Shown here in pieces: positions 685-16,397 of a stretch of DNA of 64,000 nucleotides (positions are counted from its first letter, which is position 1; each line of letters starts with the position of its first letter). The notes beneath the pieces were generated by a model that had not been told where the DNA came from, did no database searches, and saw only the letters and a program-made list of their open reading frames with translations. A program made the translations under genes and the position numbers. The DNA is from Candidatus Eiseniibacteriota bacterium (GTDB lineage: Bacteria; Eisenbacteria; RBG-16-71-46; CAZAMP01). Where the stretch lies: contig OZ245046.1 in assembly GCA_965224245.1 (NCBI GenBank), forward strand, positions 5,024,001 to 5,088,000. The letters run 5' to 3'.

Positions 685-1271
685 GCCGCTACCTCTGAAG
701 TTGAGACCCCATGTGCAGTCGGCGGTCGAGCTACGAGAGACCGCCGCACGTCGTTGAGCGCCGCGCTTCCCGGGCGCGTGCCGATCATCGTGACGGTGTC
801 ACCGACTCCGCCAGCTGCAGCGGGTGCAGCTCGAAAGGCAGAGGATGACGCCAGTAGATGACAGCTCGGGTGAACGGAACCCAGAGACGCCCCATCGCAC
901 CGAGAGGTCACGTCTGGGAGGAATCAGGCCCCGAACAACTTGCTAAAGTGTACGGGGTCGTTTGGGTCCTGGTCAATTGGGGTTTCGTCGAGGATGCCGG
1001 CCCGGGTACCGGCGGCATGCCCACCCCGCAGGCCGGCCGGTGGTCGCCGCCGCCCAGACTCCCCGTGTGCGCCAACCTCAATCGGTGGAGTGACATACAC
1101 GGTAGGCGCCCCCCGCGCCCGATCCGTCGCATTCGAAGGGGGGTTCCCGTAGACTCGGGCACGCTCTCCGGGGGCGCGGTGCTCCCGGTCGAGATCGACC
1201 TCGGGCAGCGGCGTCGCCGGACGGCGAGAGCCGAGGCTCGACCTGCACGACCGAGTCCGAGGAACCCAGCT

Positions 1272-4200
1272 ATGTGGCGATCGGTGTTTTGCGTGACCGT
1301 GGCGGTGGCCGGCGTGGTGCTCCTGCCCGGGTGTGGGCCGGCGGGCGACGGACCCGAGCTCACGAGGCTCCGCAACCAGGCCAAGGCTCACTTCGAGAAC
1401 GGGGAGACCGCCGAGGCGATCGCGATCTTCCAGGACGTGCTCGCGTCGCCGGGCGCCACGCCCGAGGACGAGGTGAACCTCGGCAAGGCGTACTTCCTAG
1501 CCGGCGATCACGATCACGCGATCTCGATTCTCGAGCGCGCGCGAGAATCGCTCCCGACCCTGCCCGACATTCCGTACAACCTCGGAATCATGCACAAGCG
1601 CGACGGCCGCATCGACGACGCGATCGCCGAGCTCGAGCGGTTCCACGAGCTGGACCCGGGGTCGGTGCCCGGCACGTTCAACGTCGGCGTGCTCTACGCG
1701 CGCGCCGGGCGCAACGCCGATGCGCTGCTCGCGTTCGACCGCATCCTGGCCGCCGATCCCTTCAACGCGGCCGCTCACTATCAGCGGTTCACGGTGCTGC
1801 GCGCGCTGGGCCGCCGCGACGAGGCGCAGCTGGCGTTCGACCGGTTCGCGGAGCTGAAGGATCGCATTCCCGCCGAGCGCCTGGAGAGCGTCGCGCTCGA
1901 GGAGTCTCCGTACTTCGAGATCGCATACCGCGAGCCCGGCGACGCGGAGCCCGCGCGGATCGAGCCCATCATGCCGCCGTATACGCTGGGTTTGTCGGCG
2001 ACACCCGGGTCGGTGCCGCCGTTCGACGGCGCCACGGCCCTCGCCGCGGGCGACGTGGACGGAGACGGTGACGCGGACGTCGTCGTCGTGCATCGCGCCG
2101 CCGCCGGCGCGGCGGTGGCGACGGTCGTCCGGAACGACGGGGACGGCCGCTGGCTCGTGGCGCTGGATCTGACCGCTCCGGCCGGGGACGCCCACGGGCT
2201 CCGGCTCGTCGATCTCGACAACGACACCGACCTCGACGTGCTCGTGGTCTCCGCGCGCGGCGCGAAGCTCCACCGCAACGATGGCCAGGGCGCCCGCCTC
2301 TCGTTCTCCGATCAGACCGACGCCTCGCGCCTGGCGAACGCCACGGGCACCGCCGTCTCACTGGCCGACTACGACCACGACGGTGATCTGGACGTACACG
2401 TGTCCGGACACGCCGACGCGCTCTCGCGACTCTATCGAAACGGCGGCACGCCCGATCCGGCCACGCCGCCGGTGTTCGTGGACGTGACGGCCGAGGCTTA
2501 CCTGCCGAACCAGGGCACCGCGGGGCCGGTCTACCGCGACCTCGACGGTGACTTCGACACCGATCTGGTGGCGCTGAACGCGTCGGGCCGGGCGCGCGCC
2601 CACCGGAACGCGGGTCAGCAGGAGTTCCGGGCCGCGCCGTCCGAGGTGACTCCGTCCTCGCCGGCGCGGGCGCTGGCGTGTGACGACGTCACCGGTGACG
2701 GGTGGGCCGACGTCGTCCTCGCCACCGACGCGGGGCTCGAGGTGTTCGCCAACGCCGGGGAGGTCACGTTCACGGCCGCCGGCACGTTCGCGCTCGGCGG
2801 CGCGCCGCCCGACGACGCGACGGCCCCCGCCATCCTCGCGATGGAGCTCGTCGACCTCGATGCCGACGGCGATCTGGACGCGGTCCTCACGCGGGCCGGC
2901 GGCACCGTCGTCGCGATGCGAAACGACGGCCGGGGGTCGTTCGAGGACGTCACCGAGACGTGGGGCGTGACGGGCCTCTCCCTCGTGCCCACGCTGGCGG
3001 CGCCCGCCGTGTCCGATCTCGATGGGGACGGCACGCTCGATCTCGTGGGCGTCGATCCCGAGGGCGGGTTCGTCGTCTCCCGGGGAGCCGGTGGTGGCGC
3101 GAACGTCTGGCTCACGCTGGAGGGCGGCAAGAGCAATGCGAGGGGCGTGGGCTCGGTGGTCGACGTGCAGTCCGGGAGGCTGTTCACGCGGCGCACGGTC
3201 ACGGACACGCCGATGCCGATCGGGGTCGGCACGCACACCACGCTGGACTTCGTGCGCGTGCAGTGGCCGAGCTGGATCATCCAGAACGAGATCGACGTGG
3301 ACCTGACCGCGGAGAGACGAATCCACGTGAAGGAGAAGCCGGCGGCGCTCGGCTCGTGTCCCAGCCTCTATGCGTGGGACGGCGACGCGTACGTGTTCGT
3401 GACCGACGTTCTGGCCACCACGTCGCTCGGGCTCGCGCTGGACGGCGAGACACCGATGCCGTTCGACGACGAGGAGTTGATCCGCATCCCGACGGACCTG
3501 GCGGCCGTGACCGACGGCGAGCTCCAGTTCGTGATCACCGAGGAGCTCAACGAGATCGTCTACCTGGATCAGGTGCGCCTGCTCGTGGTCGACCATCCGC
3601 CGAGCGTCCGGGTGTACTCGAACACCATCCTCCGCGACGAGCCCTTTCCGCCGGCCGGCATCGTGGCCGTCAGACGCGAACGGCCGCCCTTCGCCGCCAC
3701 CGATCACACCGGTGCGGACTGCCTGACCGCGATCGGGGCGGTGGACGGCTTCTATGCGGCACCCTTCGAGAACGTGGGCCGCCAGTATCACGGGCTCGCC
3801 GACATGCACGCGATCGACCTCGAGCTAGGTCCGGCGACCGATCGATCGACGCTCGTGATGATCCTCCACGGCTGGATCGACTGGCCCGAAACGGCGACGT
3901 TCCTGTCCATCGCGCAGAACCCCGATCTGGAGCTGGTGCTGCCCACCGTGCACGCCAAGGGTGCGATCGGCTGGCGGCAGGTGCACGCGCCGTTCGCCGT
4001 GCAGGCGCTCAAGCCGAAAGACGTCGTGCTCGATCTCCGCGGTCGGTTGAACCCGGACGAGACGGTCCTCCGGATCGAGTCGAACCTCGCGTGCTACTGG
4101 GATCGGATCGCGCTGGCCGACGCCGTCGATGCCGAGCGGGAGACGGCCGTCGTCATCGTGGACCCGAGCCGGGCGGAGCTGAGCTTCCACGGCTGGTCGG

Positions 4201-4631
4201 CGCGCCGCCCACGGGACGCGAGCCCACTCACCACGTACGACTATCACCGCGTGGACCTGAAGGCGCCCTGGGCGGGCTCGACGGGGCGCTTCACGCGCTA
4301 TGGAGACGTGCTGCCGCTGGTCACGCTGCGCGACGACATCTACGCGATCCTGAACACCGGCGACGAGGTGCGCTTCGCGGTGTCGGCAACCGGTCTTCCC
4401 GAGGAGCATGCCGGCTGGGTGCGCGACTATTTCGTGTGGCTGGCCGGATTCGAGAAGCAGGCCGACTACGGCACGCTCGCATCGGGAACGGTGGAGCCGC
4501 TACCGTTCCGCGAGATGGACACGTATCCGTACGGCCCGGGTCAGGCGTATCCCGACGGTGACGCCCACCGGCAATACCTGGAGACGTTCAACACGCGTCT
4601 GGTCGAGCGCGCCGCTTCGCCTCCTCGATGA
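1272..4631 (+). CDS. Lipoprotein with TPR repeats, FG-GAP repeats, an ASPIC/UnbV-like region and an uncharacterised C-terminal domain
   Basis: MWRSVFCVTVAVAGVVLLPGC lipobox; TPRs (VNLGKAYF, YNLGIMH, FNVGVLY); many DxDxDGDxD loops; SNARGVGSVVDV...GVG...VQWPS; SCPSLYAWDG. Start trimmed from the track's 858. Confidence 0.85.
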   Translation: MWRSVFCVTVAVAGVVLLPGCGPAGDGPELTRLRNQAKAHFENGETAEAIAIFQDVLASPGATPEDEVNLGKAYFLAGDHDHAISILERARESLPTLPDIPYNLGIMHKRDGRIDDAIAELERFHELDPGSVPGTFNVGVLYARAGRNADALLAFDRILAADPFNAAAHYQRFTVLRALGRRDEAQLAFDRFAELKDRIPAERLESVALEESPYFEIAYREPGDAEPARIEPIMPPYTLGLSATPGSVPPFDGATALAAGDVDGDGDADVVVVHRAAAGAAVATVVRNDGDGRWLVALDLTAPAGDAHGLRLVDLDNDTDLDVLVVSARGAKLHRNDGQGARLSFSDQTDASRLANATGTAVSLADYDHDGDLDVHVSGHADALSRLYRNGGTPDPATPPVFVDVTAEAYLPNQGTAGPVYRDLDGDFDTDLVALNASGRARAHRNAGQQEFRAAPSEVTPSSPARALACDDVTGDGWADVVLATDAGLEVFANAGEVTFTAAGTFALGGAPPDDATAPAILAMELVDLDADGDLDAVLTRAGGTVVAMRNDGRGSFEDVTETWGVTGLSLVPTLAAPAVSDLDGDGTLDLVGVDPEGGFVVSRGAGGGANVWLTLEGGKSNARGVGSVVDVQSGRLFTRRTVTDTPMPIGVGTHTTLDFVRVQWPSWIIQNEIDVDLTAERRIHVKEKPAALGSCPSLYAWDGDAYVFVTDVLATTSLGLALDGETPMPFDDEELIRIPTDLAAVTDGELQFVITEELNEIVYLDQVRLLVVDHPPSVRVYSNTILRDEPFPPAGIVAVRRERPPFAATDHTGADCLTAIGAVDGFYAAPFENVGRQYHGLADMHAIDLELGPATDRSTLVMILHGWIDWPETATFLSIAQNPDLELVLPTVHAKGAIGWRQVHAPFAVQALKPKDVVLDLRGRLNPDETVLRIESNLACYWDRIALADAVDAERETAVVIVDPSRAELSFHGWSARRPRDASPLTTYDYHRVDLKAPWAGSTGRFTRYGDVLPLVTLRDDIYAILNTGDEVRFAVSATGLPEEHAGWVRDYFVWLAGFEKQADYGTLASGTVEPLPFREMDTYPYGPGQAYPDGDAHRQYLETFNTRLVERAASPPR

Positions 4632-5589
4632 GCGCCTTCTGGCCCTCGGTCGTGCGCTCGGCCGCCGTTCCGGCGCCGCGGTAGGCCGGTGCATTTTGGG
4701 TCGGATACAGCTCGGGGCGCCGGTGCGCGAGCATCGCGTGCCCGGATCGGCGCCCGCGCTCGTGACGGAGCGCCGCCAGGTCGATGGGCGCCACCACGAT
4801 CCGCTCGCCCGGCCCCGGGGACGCCTCGGCCAGGACGCGACCGTCGTAGTCGACGATCATGCTCCCACCGGGCCACGAGAAGGGCGGGTAGTGCCGGAGG
4901 CTCGCGCCCTGGTTCGCCGCCACCACGAACGCGGTGTTCTCGAGCGCGCGACAGCGATTGACCACCGTCCACCAGTCCATGGGCGCGGTGGTACCCCAGG
5001 GATCCATGTACGCCGATATCCGGATCAAGACGTCGGCCCCCTTCACGGCCAGCTCCCGCGTGACCTCGGGGAAGAGCCAGTCGTAGCACGTGGCCACGCC
5101 GAGGCGGCCGATGCTCGTCTCGACCACCGGCAACGGGTCGTCGGGGTAGTCGGGAAGGTCGTGGGGGCTCGCGTGCACCTCCCATGGGATCCACGGGTTC
5201 ACCTTCCGGTAGCGTGACAGGAGCGTTCCGTCAGGCCCCAGGAGGCACGTCGTGTTGAACACCGTGTCCGGCCAGCGGGCATCGACCTCGAGAAAGCTCC
5301 CGGTCTGGACGTGGATGCCATGAGTCCTGGCGCACTCGGCCATGCGCGCGACGTGCTCGTTGTCCACGGGCATCGCGAGCTTGTCGAGGAGCTCCTCGGC
5401 GCTGGGATAGACCGGCGCCGCGTGCGCGAACTCGGGGAACACGACGAGGCGTACGTCGTGAAACGGCGCGTAGCCAACGACGGCCTGCTCGACGAGCTGA
5501 ATCATGCGGGTGGTGTTGCGAGCCATGTCGCGACGATCGACCGGATTCGGACAGTCGACCTGGCAGGCGGCGGCATAGTAGCGATCCAC
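4588..5589 (-). CDS. Carbon-nitrogen hydrolase (nitrilase superfamily)
   Basis: E-K-C triad motifs VFPE, YRK, TCYD; VVAAN; GGSMIVDYDG. Confidence 0.9.
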   Translation of the reverse strand: MDRYYAAACQVDCPNPVDRRDMARNTTRMIQLVEQAVVGYAPFHDVRLVVFPEFAHAAPVYPSAEELLDKLAMPVDNEHVARMAECARTHGIHVQTGSFLEVDARWPDTVFNTTCLLGPDGTLLSRYRKVNPWIPWEVHASPHDLPDYPDDPLPVVETSIGRLGVATCYDWLFPEVTRELAVKGADVLIRISAYMDPWGTTAPMDWWTVVNRCRALENTAFVVAANQGASLRHYPPFSWPGGSMIVDYDGRVLAEASPGPGERIVVAPIDLAALRHERGRRSGHAMLAHRRPELYPTQNAPAYRGAGTAAERTTEGQKALIEEAKRRARPDAC

Positions 5590-5766
5590 GGGTCCTCCGG
5601 GTGCGGGCGAGAAGAGCGGCGCGAGGGATCACCTTAGCAGCGAGCCCCGAGCGGCGTCGATCCCGGGGCGCCGGTGCACTCCCGGGGATCGCGTCCGACT
5701 CGGCGTGGTCACCGGCCGGACTTCCGTCTAGACTGCCTCCACTTCCGCCGAGAGGGGGCCGAGTCC

Positions 5767-7254
5767 ATGCCGGTTCGCAGGTCGCTCGTATCGCTCGCGC
5801 TCGTGCTGTGGACCGGATGCCTGTCGCGAGCGTCCGACCCGATCCCGGCGGTCGGCGGGCGCGGGCCGGCCGACCTGGCACCGGGGCGCGACTCCGTGGT
5901 GCGCCTGGAGGACGGGACGCTCGCCATGCTGCCGTTCGCCCATCTCGCGCTCGACGCACTCCGGGAGTGCAGCGGCCTGGTTCGGCAGGGCGACGCGTTC
6001 TTCGCCCACAACGACAGCGGGGATGCGCCGGTGCTCTATCGCTCGACAACCCTCGACTTCGCCGCCGCCCGGACGCTTGCCGTGCCCGGTGCGAAGGCGC
6101 GAGACTGGGAGGACATCTGCACGATCGGCGACGACCTCCTCGTGTTCGACATCGGGGACAATCGCCGCGAGCGGAACGATCTCGTCATCTATCGCGTCCG
6201 CTATCGCGAGGCGAGGGGCGGGGAGCCCGGTCGGCTGGATCGGGTGGCGACGTACCCGATCGCGTATCCGAACGGCCGCCACGATGCCGAGGCGGGGTTC
6301 GCGATCGACGGCGTCGTCCACATCGTGTCCAAGGCGCGCGACGAGCGCGAGACGTTCGTCTATCGGTTCGACGTGCTCGAGGACGCGTCGGATCTGGCCT
6401 CCGGCATGCGGAACGTGCCTCGGCTGGTCGGCACCCTGGACGTCGGAGAGGGCGAGACCGTGACCGCGGGTACGTTCGATCCCGGCTCGGGCGAGGTGCT
6501 GCTCCTGACGTACTCCGCGGTGCTGGCGTACCCCGCGCACGCTCTCGCCGGCGCGCCGGCGACCCGCACCCGGATCTGGGCCCGGCAGTGCGAGTCCCTG
6601 TGCGCGGACGACGGACGCATCGTCATCACGAACGAGGAGCGGGACGTCTTCGTCGTGGACGCACGATTGCTCCGATCGTCGGCCTCGCTCTCGCCACCGC
6701 GTGCCCGCCTGACGCTGTCCGCGGAGGAGGCGACGCCGATTCCACTCCACGGCGCCGCGCCCGGGGACGCGCTGGGGTGGCGCCGAGAGGGCGACGCTCT
6801 CCACCTGCGGTTCGCGTTCGCACTCGACGACAGCGTAGCCGCGACGTCCATCGATCCCGTGCGGCTCGGGGGCGCGATCCTCTTCGTGTTCGGCGACGAC
6901 GAGACGACGCGGATCGGCGCCGGGCACGCGCTCGTGGCCGTCGGTCGGCGTCCCGACGGGACGTTTCACGCCTGGCGCGGTGACGGCGCCGGCGGGCTGG
7001 GCGCGCTGTCCCCGTTCGACGCCGCGGTGGTGACGGCCGCCGTGAGCGAAGGGTCCGGGTCACCCGTACTCGCGGGAGAGATCGTGCTCCCGCTCGCCGC
7101 CGTGGTCGAGGATCCCGACTCGTTCCTGTTCGACGCGCGCACGATCGGGCTGCGCGACGACGACGGACCGTACGTCTCGGGCCTCGGCTCATACTCGATG
7201 TATCGACCCTACACGTGGGCCGTCGTGCGCACGACGTCTCCCGTGTCCGGCTGA
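5767..7254 (+). CDS. Lipoprotein, probable beta-propeller followed by a DOMON/CBM9-like C-terminal region
   Basis: LWTGC lipobox; motifs ECSGL, HNDSG, DWEDI, DIGDN, HDAEA, QCES typical of an uncharacterised propeller family. Confidence 0.65.
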   Translation: MPVRRSLVSLALVLWTGCLSRASDPIPAVGGRGPADLAPGRDSVVRLEDGTLAMLPFAHLALDALRECSGLVRQGDAFFAHNDSGDAPVLYRSTTLDFAAARTLAVPGAKARDWEDICTIGDDLLVFDIGDNRRERNDLVIYRVRYREARGGEPGRLDRVATYPIAYPNGRHDAEAGFAIDGVVHIVSKARDERETFVYRFDVLEDASDLASGMRNVPRLVGTLDVGEGETVTAGTFDPGSGEVLLLTYSAVLAYPAHALAGAPATRTRIWARQCESLCADDGRIVITNEERDVFVVDARLLRSSASLSPPRARLTLSAEEATPIPLHGAAPGDALGWRREGDALHLRFAFALDDSVAATSIDPVRLGGAILFVFGDDETTRIGAGHALVAVGRRPDGTFHAWRGDGAGGLGALSPFDAAVVTAAVSEGSGSPVLAGEIVLPLAAVVEDPDSFLFDARTIGLRDDDGPYVSGLGSYSMYRPYTWAVVRTTSPVSG

Positions 7255-7321
7255 GCCGGCGGACGACCGGACCCGCCGACCGCGCACGGCCGCGCATTCG
7301 CCGTCGGAAGGAGTGTTGGAG

Positions 7322-7879
7322 ATGTTTCGCACGTTCGCGTGGGTTCTCGTGCTGGCTCAGCTGCTTTCGCCCGCGGCGGCGTCCGCGGAGGACAGGATCG
7401 GATTCGTGGACTCGGGGACCGTTCTCCAGCGTCATCCCGACCGACCGGCGGCCGAGGAGAGCATGCGCGCGTTCCGCGCGGAGCTCGATGCGCGCATGGC
7501 GGAGATGCGCGCCGAGCACACGTCGCGGGTGAACGCCTTCCGCGCCGCCCAGGACGCCGGCCAGCCCGATCAGGCGCTGTTCGACTCGGTCAAGGCGTAC
7601 GAGGAGCAGATCGACGCGTTTCTCGACGAGTCGCAGAGCGAGATCGAGCGCCGGGAGTCCGACCTGATGCAGCCCATGGTCGACGACGCCAACCGGGTCA
7701 TCGCGAGGATCGCCGAGGCCGAGGGGTTCACGTGCGTGCTCGACACGTCCAGCGGCGCCGTGGTCTACATTGACACCGCGAACGACATCACGATTCGCGC
7801 AATCCAGTCGCTGAGGGCCGAGGCCGAGGCCGAGTCCGCGGCGAGCCCCGGGTCGGACGAGGATGGCTCGGGGAGATAG
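7322..7879 (+). CDS. skp: Skp/OmpH periplasmic chaperone
   Basis: Signal peptide, RIGFVD, long helical region, IARIAEAEGFTCVLD...VVY....DIT; AAGGAG 8 nt upstream of ATG 7322. Confidence 0.85.
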   Translation: MFRTFAWVLVLAQLLSPAAASAEDRIGFVDSGTVLQRHPDRPAAEESMRAFRAELDARMAEMRAEHTSRVNAFRAAQDAGQPDQALFDSVKAYEEQIDAFLDESQSEIERRESDLMQPMVDDANRVIARIAEAEGFTCVLDTSSGAVVYIDTANDITIRAIQSLRAEAEAESAASPGSDEDGSGR

Positions 7880-7941
7880 CTCAGCTCGACCCCGGTCCAC
7901 CTGTCGCTCGTGCGGCTCGCGGGTCGGCGTCCCGGCGAGTG

Positions 7942-7950
7942 TGCTAGGAT
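7942..7950 (+). promoter_or_regulatory. Putative extended -10 promoter for the four-gene membrane operon
   Basis: TGCTAGGAT (TGn-TAGGAT) about 30 nt upstream of the GGAGG at 7981. Confidence 0.45.
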
Positions 7951-7990
7951 GCCCGGCGTCGCCGTTTCGCTCCTCACGCTGGAGGACCGA

Positions 7991-8881
7991 CTGAACACAC
8001 CTCGCATCCGCGCGCGCGTGCTGGGCATCGCGCTCGCCGCCGGCCTGACCACCGCCGCGCCGCCCGCCCTGGCCCAGGGCGAGGGCGAAGATCCGGCATC
8101 CGCCGAGGCGGCGACCGGCTGGTTCACGCCCAGCACGCTTCCCGTCGCGGTCGGCGTCGTGGTGTTCGGTTGTCTGGTGGTGGGCTTCGTGGGTCTGGCG
8201 CAACGCGGACAGAAGTTCTACATCCGGCGCATCCCGGGGCTGGAGGCGGTCGAGGAGGCGGTCGGCCGCGCCACCGAGATGGGACGCCCCATCCTGTTCA
8301 GCCCCGGTCTCGAGGTGATGGACGAGGTGGCCACGGTCGCCGCGATGAACGTGCTCGGCGAGGTCGCTCGCCGCGTGGCCAACTACGGAACCCCCATCCT
8401 GGTTCCGAACCGCGATCCGATCGTCATGACGGTCGCGCAGGAGGTGGTCCGAAACGCCTACCTGGCCGAAGGCGTACCCGATCGCTACCGATCCGAGGAC
8501 ATCTACTACACGACCCAGAGCCAGTTCGGCTACGCGGCCGCGGTCTGCGGCACCATGATCCGCGAGCGTCCGGCGGCGAACTTCTTCTTCGGCCGGTTCT
8601 ACGCCGAGAGCCTCGTGCTGGCCGAGACCGGCAACATGACCGGCGCGATCCAGATCGCCGGAACCGACGCCGATGCCCAGCTCCCGTTCTTCATCTGTGC
8701 GTGCGACTACACGCTCATCGGTGAGGAGCTGTATGCGGGGTCGGTGTATCTGTCGCGCGAGCCGCTGCTCCTCGGCGCGCTGAAGGCCCAGGACGTGGGC
8801 AAGCTCATCGTCATGATCCTCCTGGTGGTCGGATGCGCGCTCGCGGTGATCGGCGTCGACCTGCCCGCGATCGCGCAGTGA
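7991..8881 (+). CDS. DUF6754-like membrane protein (signal peptide, TM, soluble alpha/beta domain, TM); subunit 1
   Basis: YIRRIPGLEAVEEAVGRATEMGRP, AESLVLAETG, QLPFF..CDYTLIGEELYA..YL, which I recall as DUF6754. Start uncertain: CTG 7991 with GGAGG, or ATG 7949. Confidence 0.8.
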   Translation: MNTPRIRARVLGIALAAGLTTAAPPALAQGEGEDPASAEAATGWFTPSTLPVAVGVVVFGCLVVGFVGLAQRGQKFYIRRIPGLEAVEEAVGRATEMGRPILFSPGLEVMDEVATVAAMNVLGEVARRVANYGTPILVPNRDPIVMTVAQEVVRNAYLAEGVPDRYRSEDIYYTTQSQFGYAAAVCGTMIRERPAANFFFGRFYAESLVLAETGNMTGAIQIAGTDADAQLPFFICACDYTLIGEELYAGSVYLSREPLLLGALKAQDVGKLIVMILLVVGCALAVIGVDLPAIAQ

Positions 8882-8897
8882 GAGGGGTCGATCGTCG

Positions 8898-9542
8898 ATG
8901 AAGACCACGCTCCCCCTCGTATTCGGGTTCCTGGTCGGGGTCGTGATGCTGATCCAGTACTTCACGCCAAGCCAGACCATGCTGACCGCCTACAACGAGA
9001 TCCTCGACTGGAAGCAGATCGTCATCGGCATGACGTTCATCCTGGGCGTGTACTCGTTGATGCAGTACCACGGCCGGAAGATCTCCGCGCGCCGGGAAGG
9101 CTGGGGCTACTCGGTGGTGGCGGTGATCGGCTTCGCGGCGATGGTGCTGCTCGGGGTGCTCAACGTGTTCAGTGACACCAAGCGGCCGTTCACGTGGATG
9201 TTCGACAACGTGCAGGCGCCGATGCAGGCCACGATGTTCTCGCTCCTGGCGTTCTACGTGGCGTCGGCGTCGTACCGCGCGTTCCGGGCCCGATCCGGCC
9301 ACGCGACGATGCTGCTGGTGGCCGGTGTCGTGGTCATGCTCGGCCGCGTGCCGCTGGGTGAGTACTTTGCGATCCCGGGTACGAATGCGAGCATTCCATC
9401 GCTGGCGGACTTCGTCCTCGACGTTCCGAATCTCGCGGCCAAGCGCGGCATTCTGATCGGTGTGGGGCTGGGCATGGTGGCCACCGCGATGAAGATCCTC
9501 CTCGGCATCGAGCGGACGTACCTCGGAAAGGGCAGTCAATGA
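8898..9542 (+). CDS. Approx. 6-TM membrane protein; subunit 2
   Basis: Six hydrophobic segments; TMFSLLAFYVASASYRAFR; AAKRGILIGVGLG; GAGG upstream. Confidence 0.85.
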   Translation: MKTTLPLVFGFLVGVVMLIQYFTPSQTMLTAYNEILDWKQIVIGMTFILGVYSLMQYHGRKISARREGWGYSVVAVIGFAAMVLLGVLNVFSDTKRPFTWMFDNVQAPMQATMFSLLAFYVASASYRAFRARSGHATMLLVAGVVVMLGRVPLGEYFAIPGTNASIPSLADFVLDVPNLAAKRGILIGVGLGMVATAMKILLGIERTYLGKGSQ

Positions 9543-9588
9543 CGCACGTAGGGGTCCGATCCCGGCCGCGCCGCGGTGGAGATCGACG

Positions 9589-10476
9589 ATGACGAGCATC
9601 GCGGGACACGACGACCAGCGTCACGACGGCTTCGCCGATCGACTCCTCCATCTCGATCGGCGGATCATCTTCCTGTGCGTCGCGCTCGCGGTGATCATCC
9701 CCATCATCCGGCCCATCGGGATGCCCATCAAGTCGTCCAAGGAGGCCGAGGACTTCATCGCCGCGCTGGAGGAGGTGAAGCCCGGTGAGGTCGTGATGTT
9801 CTCGTTCGACTACGAGGCGGACGTGCGTGCCGAGCTGGACCCGATGGCGATCACCACCTTCCGTTACTGCTTCGACCACGACATCAAGATCGTCGCGTTG
9901 ACGAACTACGCCGGTGGCCCGGGCATCGCCGAGGCCGTGTACCGTCCCGCAATGGAGGAGTTCGGCAAGACCTACGGCGAGGACTTCGTCTTTCTCGGCT
10001 ACAACACCGACTGGCAGGGCACGATGCTCCGGATGGGCGAGTCCATCCGCGCCACGTTTCCGGCCGACCACTACGGAGCCCGCACCGACGGGATGTCCAT
10101 CCTCGACGGTGTCGACTCGTACGCCGACATCCCGCTCCTCGTGTCGGTGGCCGGCAGCGCGCTCGCCGAGTACTGGGCGATCTTCGCCGGAGGCAAGTAC
10201 CAGCAGAAGGTGATCACCGGCAACACGGCCATCCAGGCCATCCTCGTCTACCCGTACTACAACGCGGGGCAGATCTCGGGCTTTCTCGGCGGCCTGAAGG
10301 GCGCCGCCGAGTTCGAGAAGCTGGCCGGGTACTCCGGTGACGCGACCCTGGGCATGGACGCGCAGAGCACGGCGCACGGCCTGATGGTCGTGTTCATCCT
10401 GCTCGGCAACGTCGCGTTCTTCCTTCAGCGACGACAGCGCGGCCGCGATGCGCACGCGGGAGGATCGGCCACATGA
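9589..10476 (+). CDS. TM, soluble domain, TM protein, apparent paralogue of subunit 1; subunit 3
   Basis: DRRIIF TM, AELDP, YGEDFVFLGY, YPYYNAGQ..G.LGGLKGAAEFE, MDAQS, C-terminal TM. Confidence 0.85.
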   Translation: MTSIAGHDDQRHDGFADRLLHLDRRIIFLCVALAVIIPIIRPIGMPIKSSKEAEDFIAALEEVKPGEVVMFSFDYEADVRAELDPMAITTFRYCFDHDIKIVALTNYAGGPGIAEAVYRPAMEEFGKTYGEDFVFLGYNTDWQGTMLRMGESIRATFPADHYGARTDGMSILDGVDSYADIPLLVSVAGSALAEYWAIFAGGKYQQKVITGNTAIQAILVYPYYNAGQISGFLGGLKGAAEFEKLAGYSGDATLGMDAQSTAHGLMVVFILLGNVAFFLQRRQRGRDAHAGGSAT

Positions 10477-11096
10477 ACGTCGAGAGCATCGGCGTCCTCA
10501 TCGCCGCCTTCTTCACACTGGCGATCTTCAGCTTCCTGTACCGGGAGAATCCCGTCTACCGCTTCGCCGAGCATCTCCTGGTGGGGGTCTCGGCGGGCTA
10601 CTACCTCGTGCAGTTCTGCATCGCCGCCATCTACCGCAAGCTCTACGTGCCGATCGCCGACGACGGCCACTGGACGCTCGTCTTCGGCGGGATCCTCGGG
10701 TTCCTGATGCTGTTCCGCTTCTCACGCCGCACGGAGTGGATCTCGCGCTTCTCCCTCGCCTTCTACGTGTCGGCGGGCGCCGGCTACATCATCCCGAACA
10801 TCCTGAACGCGCAGGTGCTTGAGCAGGTGCAGGCCTCCTTCCTGTCACCGGCGGGAACGGTGTCGGCCTGGGCCACCGTGAAGGAGCTCCTGATCGTGGT
10901 GGGCGTGCTGTCGATTCTCGTCTACTTCTTCTTCTCGAAGCCGCACAAGGGCGCAACCTCCGCGGTGGCGAAGGTGGGCATCGCGTTCCTGATGGTAGGC
11001 TTCGGCGCCTCGTTCGGCTACACGGTCATGGGACGCGTGACGCTCCTCATCGGTCGCATCACGTTCCTGCTGCGAGACGTCCCCCAGGCCTTCTGA
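10473..11096 (+). CDS. Approx. 6-TM membrane protein; subunit 4
   Basis: ATGA overlap with the upstream stop; FSFLYRENPVYRFAEHLLVGVSAGY; FLMVGFGASFGYTVMGR. Confidence 0.85.
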   Translation: MNVESIGVLIAAFFTLAIFSFLYRENPVYRFAEHLLVGVSAGYYLVQFCIAAIYRKLYVPIADDGHWTLVFGGILGFLMLFRFSRRTEWISRFSLAFYVSAGAGYIIPNILNAQVLEQVQASFLSPAGTVSAWATVKELLIVVGVLSILVYFFFSKPHKGATSAVAKVGIAFLMVGFGASFGYTVMGRVTLLIGRITFLLRDVPQAF

Positions 11097-11151
11097 GTCT
11101 CCGCCCGACGGCAACCGCCCGCCGACCGCCGATCGCGACGACCGGCGCCGA

Positions 11152-14100
11152 TCACGGGGACGCGACCGTGAGCTTCTCGCGGGCCACGATCCGCCTGGCG
11201 TCGCCCGAGACGAACTCGAGTCGCACGAAGTAGACGCCCGCGGGCGCGGCACGTCCCGACGGCGTGCTCAGATCCCACACGACCGCGTGCTCGCCCCGCT
11301 CGACCGGTCTCGTGCCGGACGACCAGACGCGACGCCCGTCGACCGCGAACACGTCGACCACGGCCGATCCGTCGCCGGGCACCCGATAGTGGAGCCGGGT
11401 GGACGCCGAGACGGGGTTGGGACGCGACAGGAGCCACACGCCGGGGGACGTCGGCCGGGAGGCTGCGTCGGCGCGGGCAACCAGCTCGAAGCGATGTTCG
11501 CCGGGGTCGACGTCGAGCGAGCGAAGCGTGCCGAGATCCCACTCGATGCCCGTTCCGTCCTCGCGCAGCGTGACCGCGTGGCGGCCCGCCCCACCGCCGT
11601 CGAGCGCGAAGGCCAGCGTCGTGGGCCTCGACGCCGTCAGCGTGACCGTCCACGCGACGACGTCCGACGAGAGACCGGCGACGCTCTGCCGGTACCGCCT
11701 CGGCAGCGTTAGGGCAGGCGGGGAGTCGGGTCGACCGATCCAGAGATCCATCTCCTCGCCGGGAGCCGGGGGCGCGGCGGCACGATCCAGGGGATCCCAG
11801 TCGTCGCGCGCCTTCGCGTCCCGACCCAGGACGATCGTCCGGGTGGCGGCGTGCTCGGGCTCCGCCGTCCGCTCCCGTGCGGAGACGAGGACGCGTAGGG
11901 CCCACACCGCGCCGGTCGGCTCGGGAGCGCGGCCGACGGATCTCGCCGCCCCGGTGCCCACGACCTCCCCGGCCGGGATCATCAGCGTGAGGGGCCGCGC
12001 GACCAGGTTCAGCACCCAGCAGCCCGACGAGGCGGGAAGGTCGTCCGACATGACGTACGCGTCGCCCACGCGCTGGTACACGTCCTGACCGACGAGCGTG
12101 CCGGCATCGCTGAACGCGACCGGATCGCTGGCGCCGTCCCGGATCATCATCGCGTCGGGATCCACGAGCACGTCGTAGGCGGCGGGATTACCCACCATCG
12201 TCCAGTTGGATGGGAGGAGCGGGACCTCGAAGAAGCCCGGCTCCGCGGGCCAGCTCGTCGAGCCGAGGACCGACCACGGGTGAGACGTGCGTGTGGCGAG
12301 CCAGAACCCGGCGCCGGGCTCCACGTCGAAGGGCGTGGAGCCGTCCAGACGCTCGTACGCCGTCGTGATCCGGCGATGAAGGAACCAGGTCGTATCGCTC
12401 GACGGGCCGCCGAACACGGCCTCCAGCGCCGCGATCACGTCGTCGTCCTCGATGCCGATCGCCGGCAGTCCGATCATGTGGTGGCGGAGATCGCGATTGG
12501 GCGGCATGCCGGCGCCGGTCGTCACCGATGCGCGCCGAGGCGCGGCCGGTGTCCCGACCTGGAGCTCGCCGCCGTCGTCGATCGTCAGCGTCGCGACGTA
12601 CTCGAATCCCCGGATCGACGCGGACGCATCAACCGTCCAGTCCGGGCCGTCGAGCGTCATCTCCAGCGGGTCGCCGTACCCGTCCTCGCCGCCGAGTCGC
12701 CGGACGATCGACGCGGCGATGACCGACGCGGTCCCCACGTCGGGGTTCGGCAGCCTCATGACGACCCCTCCCGGGCCGGAGGTCACGGTGGCGTCGGCCA
12801 CGTCGACGGTCCTGACGCGGACCGACTCGGAGTAGCCGAAGTAGTCGACCGTGATCGTGGCCTCGCCGGCGGACACCCCCTCGAGCCGACCGGGCTCCAC
12901 CGAGACGACGCCGGGATCGGACGAGGACCAGAGGGCCAGTGCCGTGACGTCGGCCGTCCCGCCTCCGTCGAGCAGCAGGATCGCGTCGACCTCGGCCGTC
13001 ATGCCGACGGCGAGGTAGAGATCCGACTCGCTCAGCTCGAAGCCCACCGCGTCCTCGGCGATCACGGTGACGGTCACGGTGACGCCCGGCGAGACGTTGC
13101 CGGCCGCGTCGATGGCGGAGATGCGATACGAGTAGTCCTGATCGGTGATCAGGTCGGCGTGGTTGATCGTCGACTCCGTCGTGGTGAAGAAGATGAGCTC
13201 CTCGCCGTCGGCGAAGGACGTGGGCGGGGCGGATCCCTCCCTCCAGCGCACGACCGAGCCGACGGCGTCGGCGGGCAGGCTCCAGGTGATCGCGACCCCG
13301 TTGCCGCCGCTACGCGCGGTGACGTCGAACGGATCGGCGGGCGGCACGTCGTCGTCCTGCCGGATGGCCACGTCCCAGGGCTGCTCTCCGTCGGTGGCGA
13401 AGACCGTGGTCTGGGCATCGTCACCGCACGTCTGCACGTTCACGCGCTGCATGTCTCGATCGGCGAAGAACAGTCGGTCGCCGACCGGATCGTATGCCAC
13501 CCCCTCGGTCTCGGCCTGGGTCAAGAAGCACGCGTCGGACGAGTGGGACGTCCAGTCGCCCGTGATGTCGATGCGATGAATCGTGCCCTGATTCGCCGCG
13601 TCACGTTCGGTCCAGTAGAGCGTGCCCGCGATCGGATCGATGTCGATTGCCTCCACCTCCTCGGGGACGATGAGCGTCTTCGTGGTGGGCACCGCGTCGT
13701 CCAGGGTCGCGAGATCGATCGACGTGATCTGCCCGCCATCGGCGTGAGCCGAGCACCAGAAGATCCGGTTGCGCCAGAGATCGAGGGCGACGTCGTTGGG
13801 CTGGGTCGCCGTGCTGTCGACGATCGCGATGGGTGAGTGTCCGGCGTCCTGACCGTCGATGTGGCCGTAGAAGACGCCTCGGAACATCGGGTCGCTCGGA
13901 TTGCCGGCGTCGCACTGCGTACCGCCGCCGCGCGCGGCCCAGTAGACGCGCTGGCGGAAGGGGTCGACCGCCACGCCCTTGGCGCCGCACCAGTCGTACA
14001 GCAGGCGCCGTTCCCCGGTGCTCGGGTCGACAGTCAGAACCTCGTCCTCGCCGCGCTGGGTGACGAAGATCTGCCTAGTCAGGGGCTCCCACGCGATGCG

Positions 14101-15486
14101 CTGTGCGCTGGACAGGTCCTGAGCCAGGACGTCCGTGTAGCCGCGTCCGATCCGGGTGGCGCCGAGGAAGTTGCTCTCCGCGTCGCTGGGCGCGAGTCCC
14201 GTCCAGTAGACCGTCGCCGTGCCGCCTCCCGGCTCGCCGCGGGTGATCGTGATCGTGGACCGATACGGGCGGGCGACGCTCAGGTTGCCATCCTCGTCCT
14301 CGAAGAACAGCGCATACGAGACGACGTCATCCGCGGTGGGATGGACGACCTCGGTGGCGTCGTCGACGAAGAGCACGGCCGGCGCTCCCTCGAAGGGATT
14401 TCCCGGAGGTATGAAGCCCGGTCTCCACCGGATCACGGTGGTCGCCACCAGGCTCGTGTCCGGCGGTGCCGCCCAGCGAAGCCGGACCCCCGACGGCGTC
14501 GCGGCGCCCGAGGCGGCGAACACCCGCGGAGGCGGGCGCCGATCCAGCCGCTCGACGACGATGTCGCCCGGGAGCGACCCGTCCGGAAGCGCGTGGTCGG
14601 GCGTCGTCAGGACCACCGGTCCGGTCGCGTCCAGATCGGCCACGAGGATGGCCGGTGCGCTCGGACTGCGATCGGTCCAGTACAGTCGACGCGCCTCGGA
14701 GTCGATGAACAGGCCCCGCGGCGACGTGTCGCCCACGTCGTAGCGCGCGAACAGGACGGGTCCGCCGCTCCCGTCGGCCGCATGCGAGTAGATGCCCCTC
14801 CCCGAGCTCTGGGTCGAGGTCCAGAAGACGCGGTCGGACTCGGGGTCGTAGTCGACGTCCCAGATGACGCCCGCACTGGAGACGATCTGGGTGGAGCCAT
14901 TGGGATCGGTCCGCCAGATCGCCTGGACCGGCAGCTCCTTCTGACCCCAGTACAGCGCGTTGGTGCGAAGGTCGGCGACCAGCCCCCTGGGTCCGAGGAG
15001 GTCACCGACCACGGTGATCTGCCCGGTCCCGTCCGTGGCCCGGCGGACGACCGAGCCGAGTATGGGCGGCGAGGCGTCGTCCCGCCCGGTCTCCAGCCAG
15101 AAGACGTCTCCCCGGAAGCGGTCGACCGCGATCGCTTCGGGGTTTGCCGACTCCAGGAGCGGCGTGCCGAACGGCTCGTGCACGAACACGTCGGTCCCGG
15201 TCACCGGCGTGCGGTAGAGCGCGTCGGGGTTCGCACTCATCCAGTAGAGCATGCCGGAGCGCCGATCGAAGGCGAGCCCGTCGTTCGCGTCGCTGGCGAT
15301 CGCGGCGATTCCGAGAGGTGTGGTCGAGTCGTCCTCGTTGATCCGGTAGATCTCGTCGACGGCCGGATTCGCATCCACCCAGTAGATGTGGCGGCCGGTC
15401 TCGGCCTGTCCGCGCCCGGCGATCCCGATCAGAAGCGCGAGGGCGGCGTGCGCGGCGATGACGCGCGGACGTGTCGAAGCGGTCAT
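11152..15486 (-). CDS. Large secreted protein: YWTD-type propellers, Fn3-like segments, an Ig-like domain and a C-terminal FlgD-Ig/T9SS-like domain
   Basis: AGGAGG before ATG 15486; signal peptide; repeated IYWVD/LYWTD/VFWTS/LYWTE; WSSSDPGVVSV; PNPV...FAVDGRRV...WD...GVYFVRL. Confidence 0.85.
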   Translation of the reverse strand: MTASTRPRVIAAHAALALLIGIAGRGQAETGRHIYWVDANPAVDEIYRINEDDSTTPLGIAAIASDANDGLAFDRRSGMLYWMSANPDALYRTPVTGTDVFVHEPFGTPLLESANPEAIAVDRFRGDVFWLETGRDDASPPILGSVVRRATDGTGQITVVGDLLGPRGLVADLRTNALYWGQKELPVQAIWRTDPNGSTQIVSSAGVIWDVDYDPESDRVFWTSTQSSGRGIYSHAADGSGGPVLFARYDVGDTSPRGLFIDSEARRLYWTDRSPSAPAILVADLDATGPVVLTTPDHALPDGSLPGDIVVERLDRRPPPRVFAASGAATPSGVRLRWAAPPDTSLVATTVIRWRPGFIPPGNPFEGAPAVLFVDDATEVVHPTADDVVSYALFFEDEDGNLSVARPYRSTITITRGEPGGGTATVYWTGLAPSDAESNFLGATRIGRGYTDVLAQDLSSAQRIAWEPLTRQIFVTQRGEDEVLTVDPSTGERRLLYDWCGAKGVAVDPFRQRVYWAARGGGTQCDAGNPSDPMFRGVFYGHIDGQDAGHSPIAIVDSTATQPNDVALDLWRNRIFWCSAHADGGQITSIDLATLDDAVPTTKTLIVPEEVEAIDIDPIAGTLYWTERDAANQGTIHRIDITGDWTSHSSDACFLTQAETEGVAYDPVGDRLFFADRDMQRVNVQTCGDDAQTTVFATDGEQPWDVAIRQDDDVPPADPFDVTARSGGNGVAITWSLPADAVGSVVRWREGSAPPTSFADGEELIFFTTTESTINHADLITDQDYSYRISAIDAAGNVSPGVTVTVTVIAEDAVGFELSESDLYLAVGMTAEVDAILLLDGGGTADVTALALWSSSDPGVVSVEPGRLEGVSAGEATITVDYFGYSESVRVRTVDVADATVTSGPGGVVMRLPNPDVGTASVIAASIVRRLGGEDGYGDPLEMTLDGPDWTVDASASIRGFEYVATLTIDDGGELQVGTPAAPRRASVTTGAGMPPNRDLRHHMIGLPAIGIEDDDVIAALEAVFGGPSSDTTWFLHRRITTAYERLDGSTPFDVEPGAGFWLATRTSHPWSVLGSTSWPAEPGFFEVPLLPSNWTMVGNPAAYDVLVDPDAMMIRDGASDPVAFSDAGTLVGQDVYQRVGDAYVMSDDLPASSGCWVLNLVARPLTLMIPAGEVVGTGAARSVGRAPEPTGAVWALRVLVSARERTAEPEHAATRTIVLGRDAKARDDWDPLDRAAAPPAPGEEMDLWIGRPDSPPALTLPRRYRQSVAGLSSDVVAWTVTLTASRPTTLAFALDGGGAGRHAVTLREDGTGIEWDLGTLRSLDVDPGEHRFELVARADAASRPTSPGVWLLSRPNPVSASTRLHYRVPGDGSAVVDVFAVDGRRVWSSGTRPVERGEHAVVWDLSTPSGRAAPAGVYFVRLEFVSGDARRIVAREKLTVASP

Positions 15487-15506
15487 GCGTGTCACCTCCT
15501 CCGGGA

Positions 15507-16397
15507 TCACCAGCGCAGGATCCAGGCGATCGGTCCCAGGCCGGGCGGCGGCGGCGGGTTCGGGTCCAGGCGGTCGGGCTCTTGCTCCCCGTTCTTCTCG
15601 TCGCCCTTGAACAGAAGGTATCCGCCGACGCCCGCGGCGGCGACACCGGCCACGATCGCGACGGTCCTGAGGATGGAGGATCCATCCTCGTCGCTGGGCG
15701 TCACCAGCGTGACCGGGATCCTCTGCTCGCGCGCACCATCGATCGTGAACACGAGCGCGGCGGCGGCGGCGCCCACGACGTCGCTCGCGCCGGGTCCGGG
15801 CGTCACCCGCACCTCGGCGGCTCCCGACGCCGCGGTCCCGTTCCTCGGTGTCACCGAGAGCCAGGACGGAGGCGTCTGCAGCGACCAGGTGAACGCCCGA
15901 CCATCGGCCGACGCCAGCGTGAGCGTCCGGACGAGTTCGCCGTCCTCCCGATCACCGCGCAGCTCGAGGCTCTCGGGCGTGATCGTGACGCGGATGGGCC
16001 GGCTGGCGCGCGCCTCCTCGAGGAGCGAACGCTCGGTCATGCCGCCGGGCTCGGGCTGGAACGTGGGCAGCTCCTCCAGCAGCGCGCGGTACTCGGACAG
16101 GGCGCTCTCGCGATCACCCATCGATACGAAGATCTGCGCGCGGAGATCTCGAACCTCCGCGCGACACACCGGATCGAGCGACGAGAGATCCAGACCACGG
16201 ACGGTGTCGAGCGCGCGCTCGAACTGAGCTTCGTCGTAGAACAGCGAGACCGCGCGGGCGATGTCGGGGTCGCCGGCGGCGCAATCGTCGATGCGCGCGG
16301 CCGCCGCCGCCGTCGCGGACAGTGCGGCGACGCCGAGGGCGAGGCACGTGGTCTGCGCCCGCCGGCGGACGGTCGCGAGTCGTGTCGATGTCTGCAT
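15507..16397 (-). CDS. Exported TPR + BACON-like protein with a C-terminal hydrophobic segment
   Basis: Signal peptide, helical TPR-like region, FTWSL..PSWLSVTP.NG, VAIVAGVAAAGVGGYLLF, poly-Pro; GGGGAG RBS. Confidence 0.7.
   Translation of the reverse strand: MQTSTRLATVRRRAQTTCLALGVAALSATAAAAARIDDCAAGDPDIARAVSLFYDEAQFERALDTVRGLDLSSLDPVCRAEVRDLRAQIFVSMGDRESALSEYRALLEELPTFQPEPGGMTERSLLEEARASRPIRVTITPESLELRGDREDGELVRTLTLASADGRAFTWSLQTPPSWLSVTPRNGTAASGAAEVRVTPGPGASDVVGAAAAALVFTIDGAREQRIPVTLVTPSDEDGSSILRTVAIVAGVAAAGVGGYLLFKGDEKNGEQEPDRLDPNPPPPPGLGPIAWILRW

Follow-up and report, generated by a model that had tools for sequence, protein, structure and literature searches.

A conserved four-gene DUF6754 cassette probably encodes part of a new kind of ATP-coupled membrane machine

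In a stretch of 64,000 nucleotides from a Candidatus Eiseniibacteriota bacterium (assembly GCA_965224245.1, contig OZ245046.1, positions 5,024,001 to 5,088,000; hereafter the window, numbered from its first letter), four membrane-protein genes, here called S1 to S4, lie tightly packed and co-directional on the + strand. They are one copy of a widespread, uncharacterised "DUF6754 module", which very probably encodes a four-subunit inner-membrane complex. The unit is probably part of an ATP-coupled membrane machine of a new kind, and we tentatively read the cassette as the cargo-specific membrane module of a modular, ATPase-coupled and probably uptake-directed system. Three lines of evidence bear on this: the near-constant order of the four genes across phyla, their co-occurrence with an actin-fold ATPase related to GlmL, and a predicted topology that places one soluble domain on each face of the membrane.

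Results

The four genes of the window cassette

The open reading frames are S1 at 7910-8881 (323 amino acids (aa), counted from a GTG at 7910), S2 at 8898-9542 (214 aa), S3 at 9589-10476 (295 aa) and S4 at 10473-11096 (207 aa). Sixteen nucleotides (nt) separate S1 from S2 and 46 nt separate S2 from S3, and the start of S4 overlaps the stop of S3 by 4 nt. S1 and S3 are the bitopic subunits. S2 and S4 are polytopic with about six hydrophobic segments each, agreeing in this and in length with a preliminary description of the sequence, which had put both at about 210 aa and six membrane helices; the motif strings it quoted are likewise all present in the translations. The true start of S1 is uncertain among GTG 7910, ATG 7949 and CTG 7991, the last of which lies 4 nt past a GGAGGA and would yield a clean signal peptide. 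A promoter and terminator scan of 7000-11400 placed neither inside the operon, and in an Rfam scan neither a riboswitch nor any other RNA family turned up near the cassette.

S1 is a full-length member of the Pfam family DUF6754 (PF20539; E 1.2e-112, 375.7 bits against a curated gathering cut-off of 27 bits, profile positions 3-251 of 257), a catalogue entry without function that has no companion Pfam model for S2, S3 or S4. None of these three matched a Pfam or NCBIfam family above the curated cut-off. When 60 S2, 71 S3 and 60 S4 homologues were scanned one by one, only scattered sub-threshold matches to hydrophobic families appeared, for example TMD0_ABC in 12 of the 60 S2 members with a best E of 5e-4. 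Look-ups of S2 and S4 in the ESM Atlas returned only unnamed "hypothetical protein" clusters, and a search of Protein Data Bank (PDB) sequences with S1-S4 profiles gave nothing credible (best E 0.22, for S3). The Pfam, NCBIfam, PDB sequence and structure searches thus bear out the earlier impression that the genes match no characterised complex. A full-text literature search for DUF6754, PF20539 and PF13941 found no papers, supplementary tables of genome surveys lying outside its reach.

The cassette is conserved across phyla

The same genome carries three more S1-S2-S3-S4 sets, located by tblastn at ~1.297, ~1.484 and ~3.819 Mb of contig C1 and 30-52% identical to the window proteins, for a total of four copies. 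The gene order is the same in all 23 loci first compared (20 regions of 20 related genomes and the three paralogous loci). For a wider sample, a degenerate-pattern scan restricted to one genome per species gave 588 candidates, 505 of which were relatives, and 80 loci were kept. Among the 82 S1 genes in them with at least 2.6 kb of contig downstream, 79 have S2, S3 and S4 behind them in that order; 21 further S1 genes lie too near a contig end to be counted. The neighbourhood survey therefore upholds the proposal that the four genes form one unit. The exceptions fall in loci L067, L074 and L083. In the last two, S1 (L074:6975-7925 and L083:7893-8765) stands without S2-S4 despite the 2.6 kb or more downstream, and these genes are perhaps orphans or degraded copies.

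Of the 80 loci, 16 contain two or three cassettes, for the most part arranged head to tail. The loci come from metagenome-assembled genomes (MAGs) labelled Eisenbacteria, WOR-3, Zixibacteria, Poribacteria, Ignavibacteria, Scalindua, Phycisphaerae, Nitrospirota, Methylomirabilis and Desulfuromonadaceae, among others, and the closest relative in the sample, at 75% identity, is from the Eisenbacteria. In a search of 50%-identity cluster representatives, an S3 profile retrieved 5,423 sequences at E <= 1e-3, 4,226 at 1e-10 and 1,469 at 1e-30. Mean column identity across phyla is highest in S1 (46%), followed by S3 (41%), S2 (39%) and S4 (33%), and S1 has many invariant polar residues: R106, E123, E233, E239, Q248, Q257, D266, E272, E273, D295 and K298.

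A GlmL-like ATPase accompanies the cassette

In several phyla a co-directional trio of genes lies upstream of cassettes. It encodes c5, a small amphipathic protein of ~100-130 aa; a PF13941 protein of ~600 aa, that is, an ASKHA ATPase with the actin fold of GlmL/MutL; and c2, a soluble protein of ~375 aa. Both PF20539 and PF13941 are present in 38 of the 41 genomes of the class, the other three (G002, G010 and G024) having neither, and both are present in 14 of 121 Nitrospirota genomes, where each occurs once, ~2 kb from the other and on the same strand, the remaining 107 again having neither; these samples contain related genomes, which are not independent, and some incomplete ones. PF13941 usually gives a single match per genome, ~2 kb upstream of a cassette, while DUF6754 gives 1-6. 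Of 36 ATPase loci retrieved, 35 showed c5 and 35 showed c2.

In the genome of the window, for which gene calling at 70% G+C made use of a filter on G+C at third codon positions (GC3), the only PF13941 gene (C1:1480718-1482580) precedes c2 and, beyond it, the paralogous cassette starting at 1483704. The full order in this region (G000 C1:1478061-1486671, corresponding to L122:6061-14671) is gcvT, gcvH, a c5-like open reading frame, the ATPase, c2 and the S1-S4 cassette. This operon lies 3.5 Mb from the window cassette. The preliminary description had seen no ATPase, which holds at the window locus but not for the system, as the cassette strictly co-occurs with the GlmL-like ATPase operon.

The partner ATPase matches PF13941 from end to end (E 9.5e-124), and its phosphate-binding motifs, of the DxGxTxTK and DxGGxTTD types, are intact. 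It scores 223.1 bits against a cut-off of 475 for the GlmL equivalog (NF040745), making it a member at the level of PF13941 only, and it bears a C-terminal extension of ~130 aa. c2 has a sub-threshold match to the N-terminal barrel-sandwich domain of RnfC (E 5e-4, 20.5 bits against a cut-off of 25.6). In the PDB sequence search neither c2 nor the ATPase had a relative of solved structure. In four genomes of the class (G001:C30, G006:C80, G013:C19 and G033:C10) there is an additional, divergent match to PF13941 (E 1e-94 to 1e-101) in open frames of 869-924 aa, possibly representing a longer paralogue of the partner ATPase.

Opposite orientations of the subunits

The predicted layout of S1 begins with a signal-peptide-like N-terminus and a short exported linker, continues with a membrane helix (~74-98) and a cytoplasmic Rossmann-like (beta-alpha)x6 domain, and ends in a second membrane helix (285-313). 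The 15 residues past helix 1 hold on average 3.4 K+R in 127 homologues, which would place the S1 domain inside. S3 is predicted to have an N-in helix (24-40), a periplasmic Rossmann-like (beta-alpha)x6 domain, a long C-terminal helix (251-291) and a K/R-rich cytoplasmic tail; K+R averages over ~110 homologues of 3.1 for the N-tail and 4.3 for the C-tail would put its domain outside. In S2 the K/R-rich loops follow helices 2 and 4 (55-68 and 127-133; profile of 114 homologues), indicating an N-in protein, and in S4 they follow helices 1, 3 and 5 (24-30, 82-92 and 156-166; ~110 homologues), indicating an N-out protein.

Domain insertions in homologues fall on the faces predicted to be outside. 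The exported part of the window S1 is only ~25 residues long, while N-terminal extensions of 400-750 aa are found in S1 homologues, including two from WOR-3 with Fn3 matches (L063:6660-8783 and L064:6489-8783) and the long ectodomains of L101 (407-3451 and 5838-8777) and L115. The loop between helices 3 and 4 of S2 (~89-108), predicted to be outside, is a hot spot of insertions: it holds an FG-GAP propeller in an Ignavibacteria homologue (L078:8854-10638) and a copy of an S3-type Rossmann-like domain in one from the Planctomycetota (L067:1249-2595). In many S3 relatives the outside domain is interrupted by insertions at two places, around profile positions 115 and 241.

A natural fusion is also informative. 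P0140 (598 aa), the sole S3-S4 fusion among 150 representatives, contains precisely one additional hydrophobic segment between the last helix of S3 and the first of S4, as is required if S3 ends inside and S4 begins outside. In another representative, P0070 (472 aa), S3 is followed by an extra helix and a tail of ~175 aa. The orientations first suggested from the sequence, with the S1 domain cytoplasmic, the S3 domain periplasmic, S2 N-in and S4 N-out, are thus supported by the positive-inside counts, the insertions and the P0140 fusion. Prediction supports S1 and S3 domains that face opposite sides of the membrane and an S2 and S4 that are oppositely oriented.

Are the subunits mirror duplicates?

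The preliminary description had gone further, proposing a pseudo-symmetric, antiparallel 2+2 complex. Under that proposal a two-gene unit, consisting of a bitopic Rossmann protein and a six-helix protein, was duplicated, so that S3-S4 is the inverted duplicate of S1-S2 and the complex has a two-fold axis in the plane of the membrane. The opposite predicted orientations of S1/S3 and S2/S4 and the alternating gene order are as expected under this scenario. AlphaFold2 models of S1 (mean predicted local distance difference test score, pLDDT, 84.6, with a core above 95) and S3 (94.9) also have a common order of elements: a membrane helix, alpha0, six beta-alpha units and a long C-terminal membrane helix, the S3 model having an extra insert at ~150-182. 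A secondary-structure-guided alignment keeps all elements in register over 251 columns with 55 identities, and the five S1/S3 motif pairs that had been noted fall on equivalent elements of the models (beta1, beta3, beta5, alpha5 and the C-terminal helix). As modelled, then, S1 and S3 share architecture and fold class.

Against the scenario, sequence comparison does not connect the pairs. BLASTP found no significant similarity between S1 and S3 (E 0.92) or between S2 and S4 (E 1.1). Profile-profile comparison with hhalign (profiles of 24, 59-71 and 109-127 sequences, and an enlarged S3 profile of 236 sequences with Neff 4.5) aligned membrane helices only, with P 0.03-0.07 for S1/S3 and 0.044-0.28 for S2/S4, the best alignment of the latter not being colinear with the proposed motifs. 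Non-pair controls did no worse (S1/S4 P 0.062, S1/S2 and S3/S4 0.24, S2/S3 0.53), and neither secondary-structure weighting nor the 236-sequence S3 profile brought a gain. Against 1000 shuffles within secondary-structure classes, the guided S1/S3 alignment stands out weakly (z 2.1, 21/1000), and for the soluble parts alone z falls to 1.6 (62/1000). Foldseek and VIA-align gave no specific structural relative of S1 or S3; both have the same generic Rossmann-like neighbours, including KTN/RCK regulatory domains, as expected because the Rossmann-like sandwich is very common.

Of the S2/S4 likenesses, the motif FSLLAFYVASASY / FSLAFYVSAGAGY (around FSLLAF in S2) is kept across the S2 family, but the S4 family consensus at that place is only PIAFxxGxxxG. 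The similarity of S2 and S4 is thus not confirmed beyond chance, given also their BLASTP result and hhalign values like those of the controls. For S1 and S3 the claim stands as to architecture, fold class and motif positions but not as to homology detectable by BLASTP or hhalign. Common descent of S1 and S3, and with it the idea of mirror duplicates, is unproven; we consider the full 2+2 scenario possible but somewhat unlikely. The modular, ATPase-coupled reading does not need a mirror duplication.

Surroundings of the cassettes and of the ATPase genes

In the class, gcvT and gcvH, usually together with gcvP and a gene for a two-helix protein (c33), precede the ATPase in 19 of 20 loci, the remaining one being cut at gcvPB. 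gcvPB stands at the same place in the Desulfuromonadaceae MAG L159 and in L096. The 12 Nitrospirota ATPase loci have no gcv genes, and lipA lies nearby in 2 of them. An Rfam scan of the gcv-ATPase loci found no riboswitch or other RNA family. Other flanking genes are lineage-specific and include aroK/aroB, a sulfatase gene and purF.

Around the window cassette, at 11152-15510 (-), 858-4628 (+), 5674-7254 (+) and 4588-5589 (-), lie genes for large, probably exported proteins and a carbon-nitrogen hydrolase gene. The large proteins include one of 1,452 aa with weak matches to YWTD/LDL-receptor-B repeats, one of 1,257 aa with TPR and FG-GAP repeats, and one of 526 aa without a Pfam match. A gene for an OmpH/Skp-type periplasmic chaperone (PF03938, E 1.1e-20) at 7313-7879 (+) ends 31 nt upstream of S1. 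We rejected it as a member of the system, as an OmpH query had no match at E <= 1e-3 in 23 loci, including the closest cassettes L031, L033 and L036.

Discussion

How the cassette may work

In all likelihood S1 anchors its near-invariant Rossmann-like domain at the cytoplasmic face between two membrane helices, and S3 likewise anchors a more variable one at the periplasmic face, with S2 (N-in) and S4 (N-out) adding ~12 helices. The module is not self-sufficient, the single-copy core of the larger system being c5, the GlmL-like ATPase and c2. The mechanism that we tentatively favour would have the following form. The variable outside parts, namely the S3 domain, the N-terminal ectodomain of S1 and the outer loop of S2, may bind cargo, for which S2 and S4 would form the path across the membrane. 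The invariant cytoplasmic domain of S1 may then dock the shared ATPase module, which would power the step. In this way one energiser could serve many membrane modules, most likely in uptake.

A structure prediction of the complex formed by S1 (66-323), S2 and S4 with S3 as partner gave 0.75 three times; the controls in which the partner was replaced gave 0.00 and 0.00, and that in which S1 was replaced gave 0.76. We count this result neither for nor against binding.

Several points weigh against an ATPase-driven uptake machine. Neither S2 nor S4 showed the fold or a motif of a transporter in the Pfam and NCBIfam family searches, and we know of no primary transporter energised by an ASKHA ATPase. 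GlmL relatives, to judge from their NCBIfam names, are thought to be accessory or reactivating proteins of mutases. Physical contact between S1 and the ATPase is only putative. No ATPase gene lies near the window cassette, whose presumed dependence on a distant one rests on phyletic co-occurrence. Finally, the genes flanking the system vary by lineage (aroK/aroB, purF, glycine cleavage) and indicate no single pathway.

Relation to known systems

Sharing one energising module among many membrane modules has precedents in the group II ECF transporters, in the EI/HPr proteins of the PTS and in TonB-ExbBD. By analogy, a genome with the DUF6754 system has a single copy of the ATPase core alongside 1-6 diverged cassettes, which are either scattered or in tandem. 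It differs from these in that its energiser is an actin-fold, GlmL-like protein rather than a P-loop ATPase. Neither sequence nor fold links it to components of ECF, ABC, PTS or TonB systems, and none of S1-S4 matched ABC, ECF, TRAP, PTS, MFS or other transporter families of Pfam and NCBIfam at the curated cut-off.

RnfA/RnfE and NqrD/NqrE (PF02508) are inverted pairs of six-helix paralogues. Like them, S2 and S4 are ~200-aa subunits with about six helices and opposite predicted orientations in one complex, and c2 adds the sub-threshold likeness to RnfC. Unlike the Rnf and Nqr pairs, S2 and S4 have no mutual homology detectable by BLASTP or hhalign. In the Rnf/Nqr pair conserved cysteines hold an iron centre between the subunits, whereas no Cys stands in an invariant or nearly invariant column of S2 or S4, and there are no flavin, Fe-S or NADH subunits nearby. 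When 60 S2 and 60 S4 members were searched at E <= 1, PF02508 did not appear among the 25 families with the largest number of matching members, and families outside those 25 were matched by at most one member each. Given the above, a relationship to Rnf/Nqr is rejected at the sequence level.

The partner ATPase resembles the GlmL/MutL proteins of glutamate mutase in its end-to-end family match. It departs from them in falling below the equivalog cut-off, in its C-terminal extension and in sitting with membrane cassettes instead of mutase genes. KTN/RCK domains, domain III of transhydrogenase (dIII) and other membrane-associated Rossmann-like domains complete the list of the closest known systems.

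Alternative roles

The same proteins might form a trans-membrane sensor or coupling device instead of a transporter. Here the outside domains would sense a ligand or the state of the envelope, and the S1 domain would relay this to the actin-fold ATPase as output or scaffold. In favour of this, domains of adhesion or binding type (Fn3, FG-GAP) occur on the variable outside parts, conservation is highest in the cytoplasmic domain, KTN/RCK regulatory domains are among the structural neighbours of S1 and S3, and actin-fold proteins often serve as scaffolds. However, the ~12 polytopic helices of each cassette exceed what signalling usually needs, and the flanks examined hold no conserved kinase, cyclase or DNA-binding partner; we give such a device little credence. 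Less probable still is a membrane-bound enzyme or envelope-assembly complex with a catalytic S1, such as a modifier or flippase of lipid-linked or cell-surface molecules: the many invariant polar residues of S1 and the OmpH/Skp-type gene next to it would fit, but the matches concerned are no stronger than matches to unrelated Rossmann proteins, the chaperone gene is not found with the cassette in the 23 loci searched, and several diverged copies per genome suit substrate-specific modules better than a single biosynthetic step.

The modular, ATPase-coupled reading can also be extended. The DUF6754 system could represent a new class of primary active transporter, or a trans-envelope motor, that uses an actin-fold instead of a P-loop ATPase. 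Its membrane unit would stem from an ancient inverted duplication, and through the homologous Rossmann-like domains thus placed on the two faces a conformational change driven in the cytoplasm would be mirrored in the periplasm. As a whole this extension strikes us as improbable.

Significance

A common and conserved membrane system that lacks a homologue of known function and has an obligate actin-fold ATPase partner constitutes a large annotation blind spot in environmental genomes, its carriers belonging to many phyla and being mostly uncultivated. If S1/S3 and S2/S4 are true inverted duplicates, they would form an inverted pair bearing large soluble domains on both sides of the membrane, of which we know no earlier case. 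If the system is a transporter, it would embody a new principle of energy coupling.

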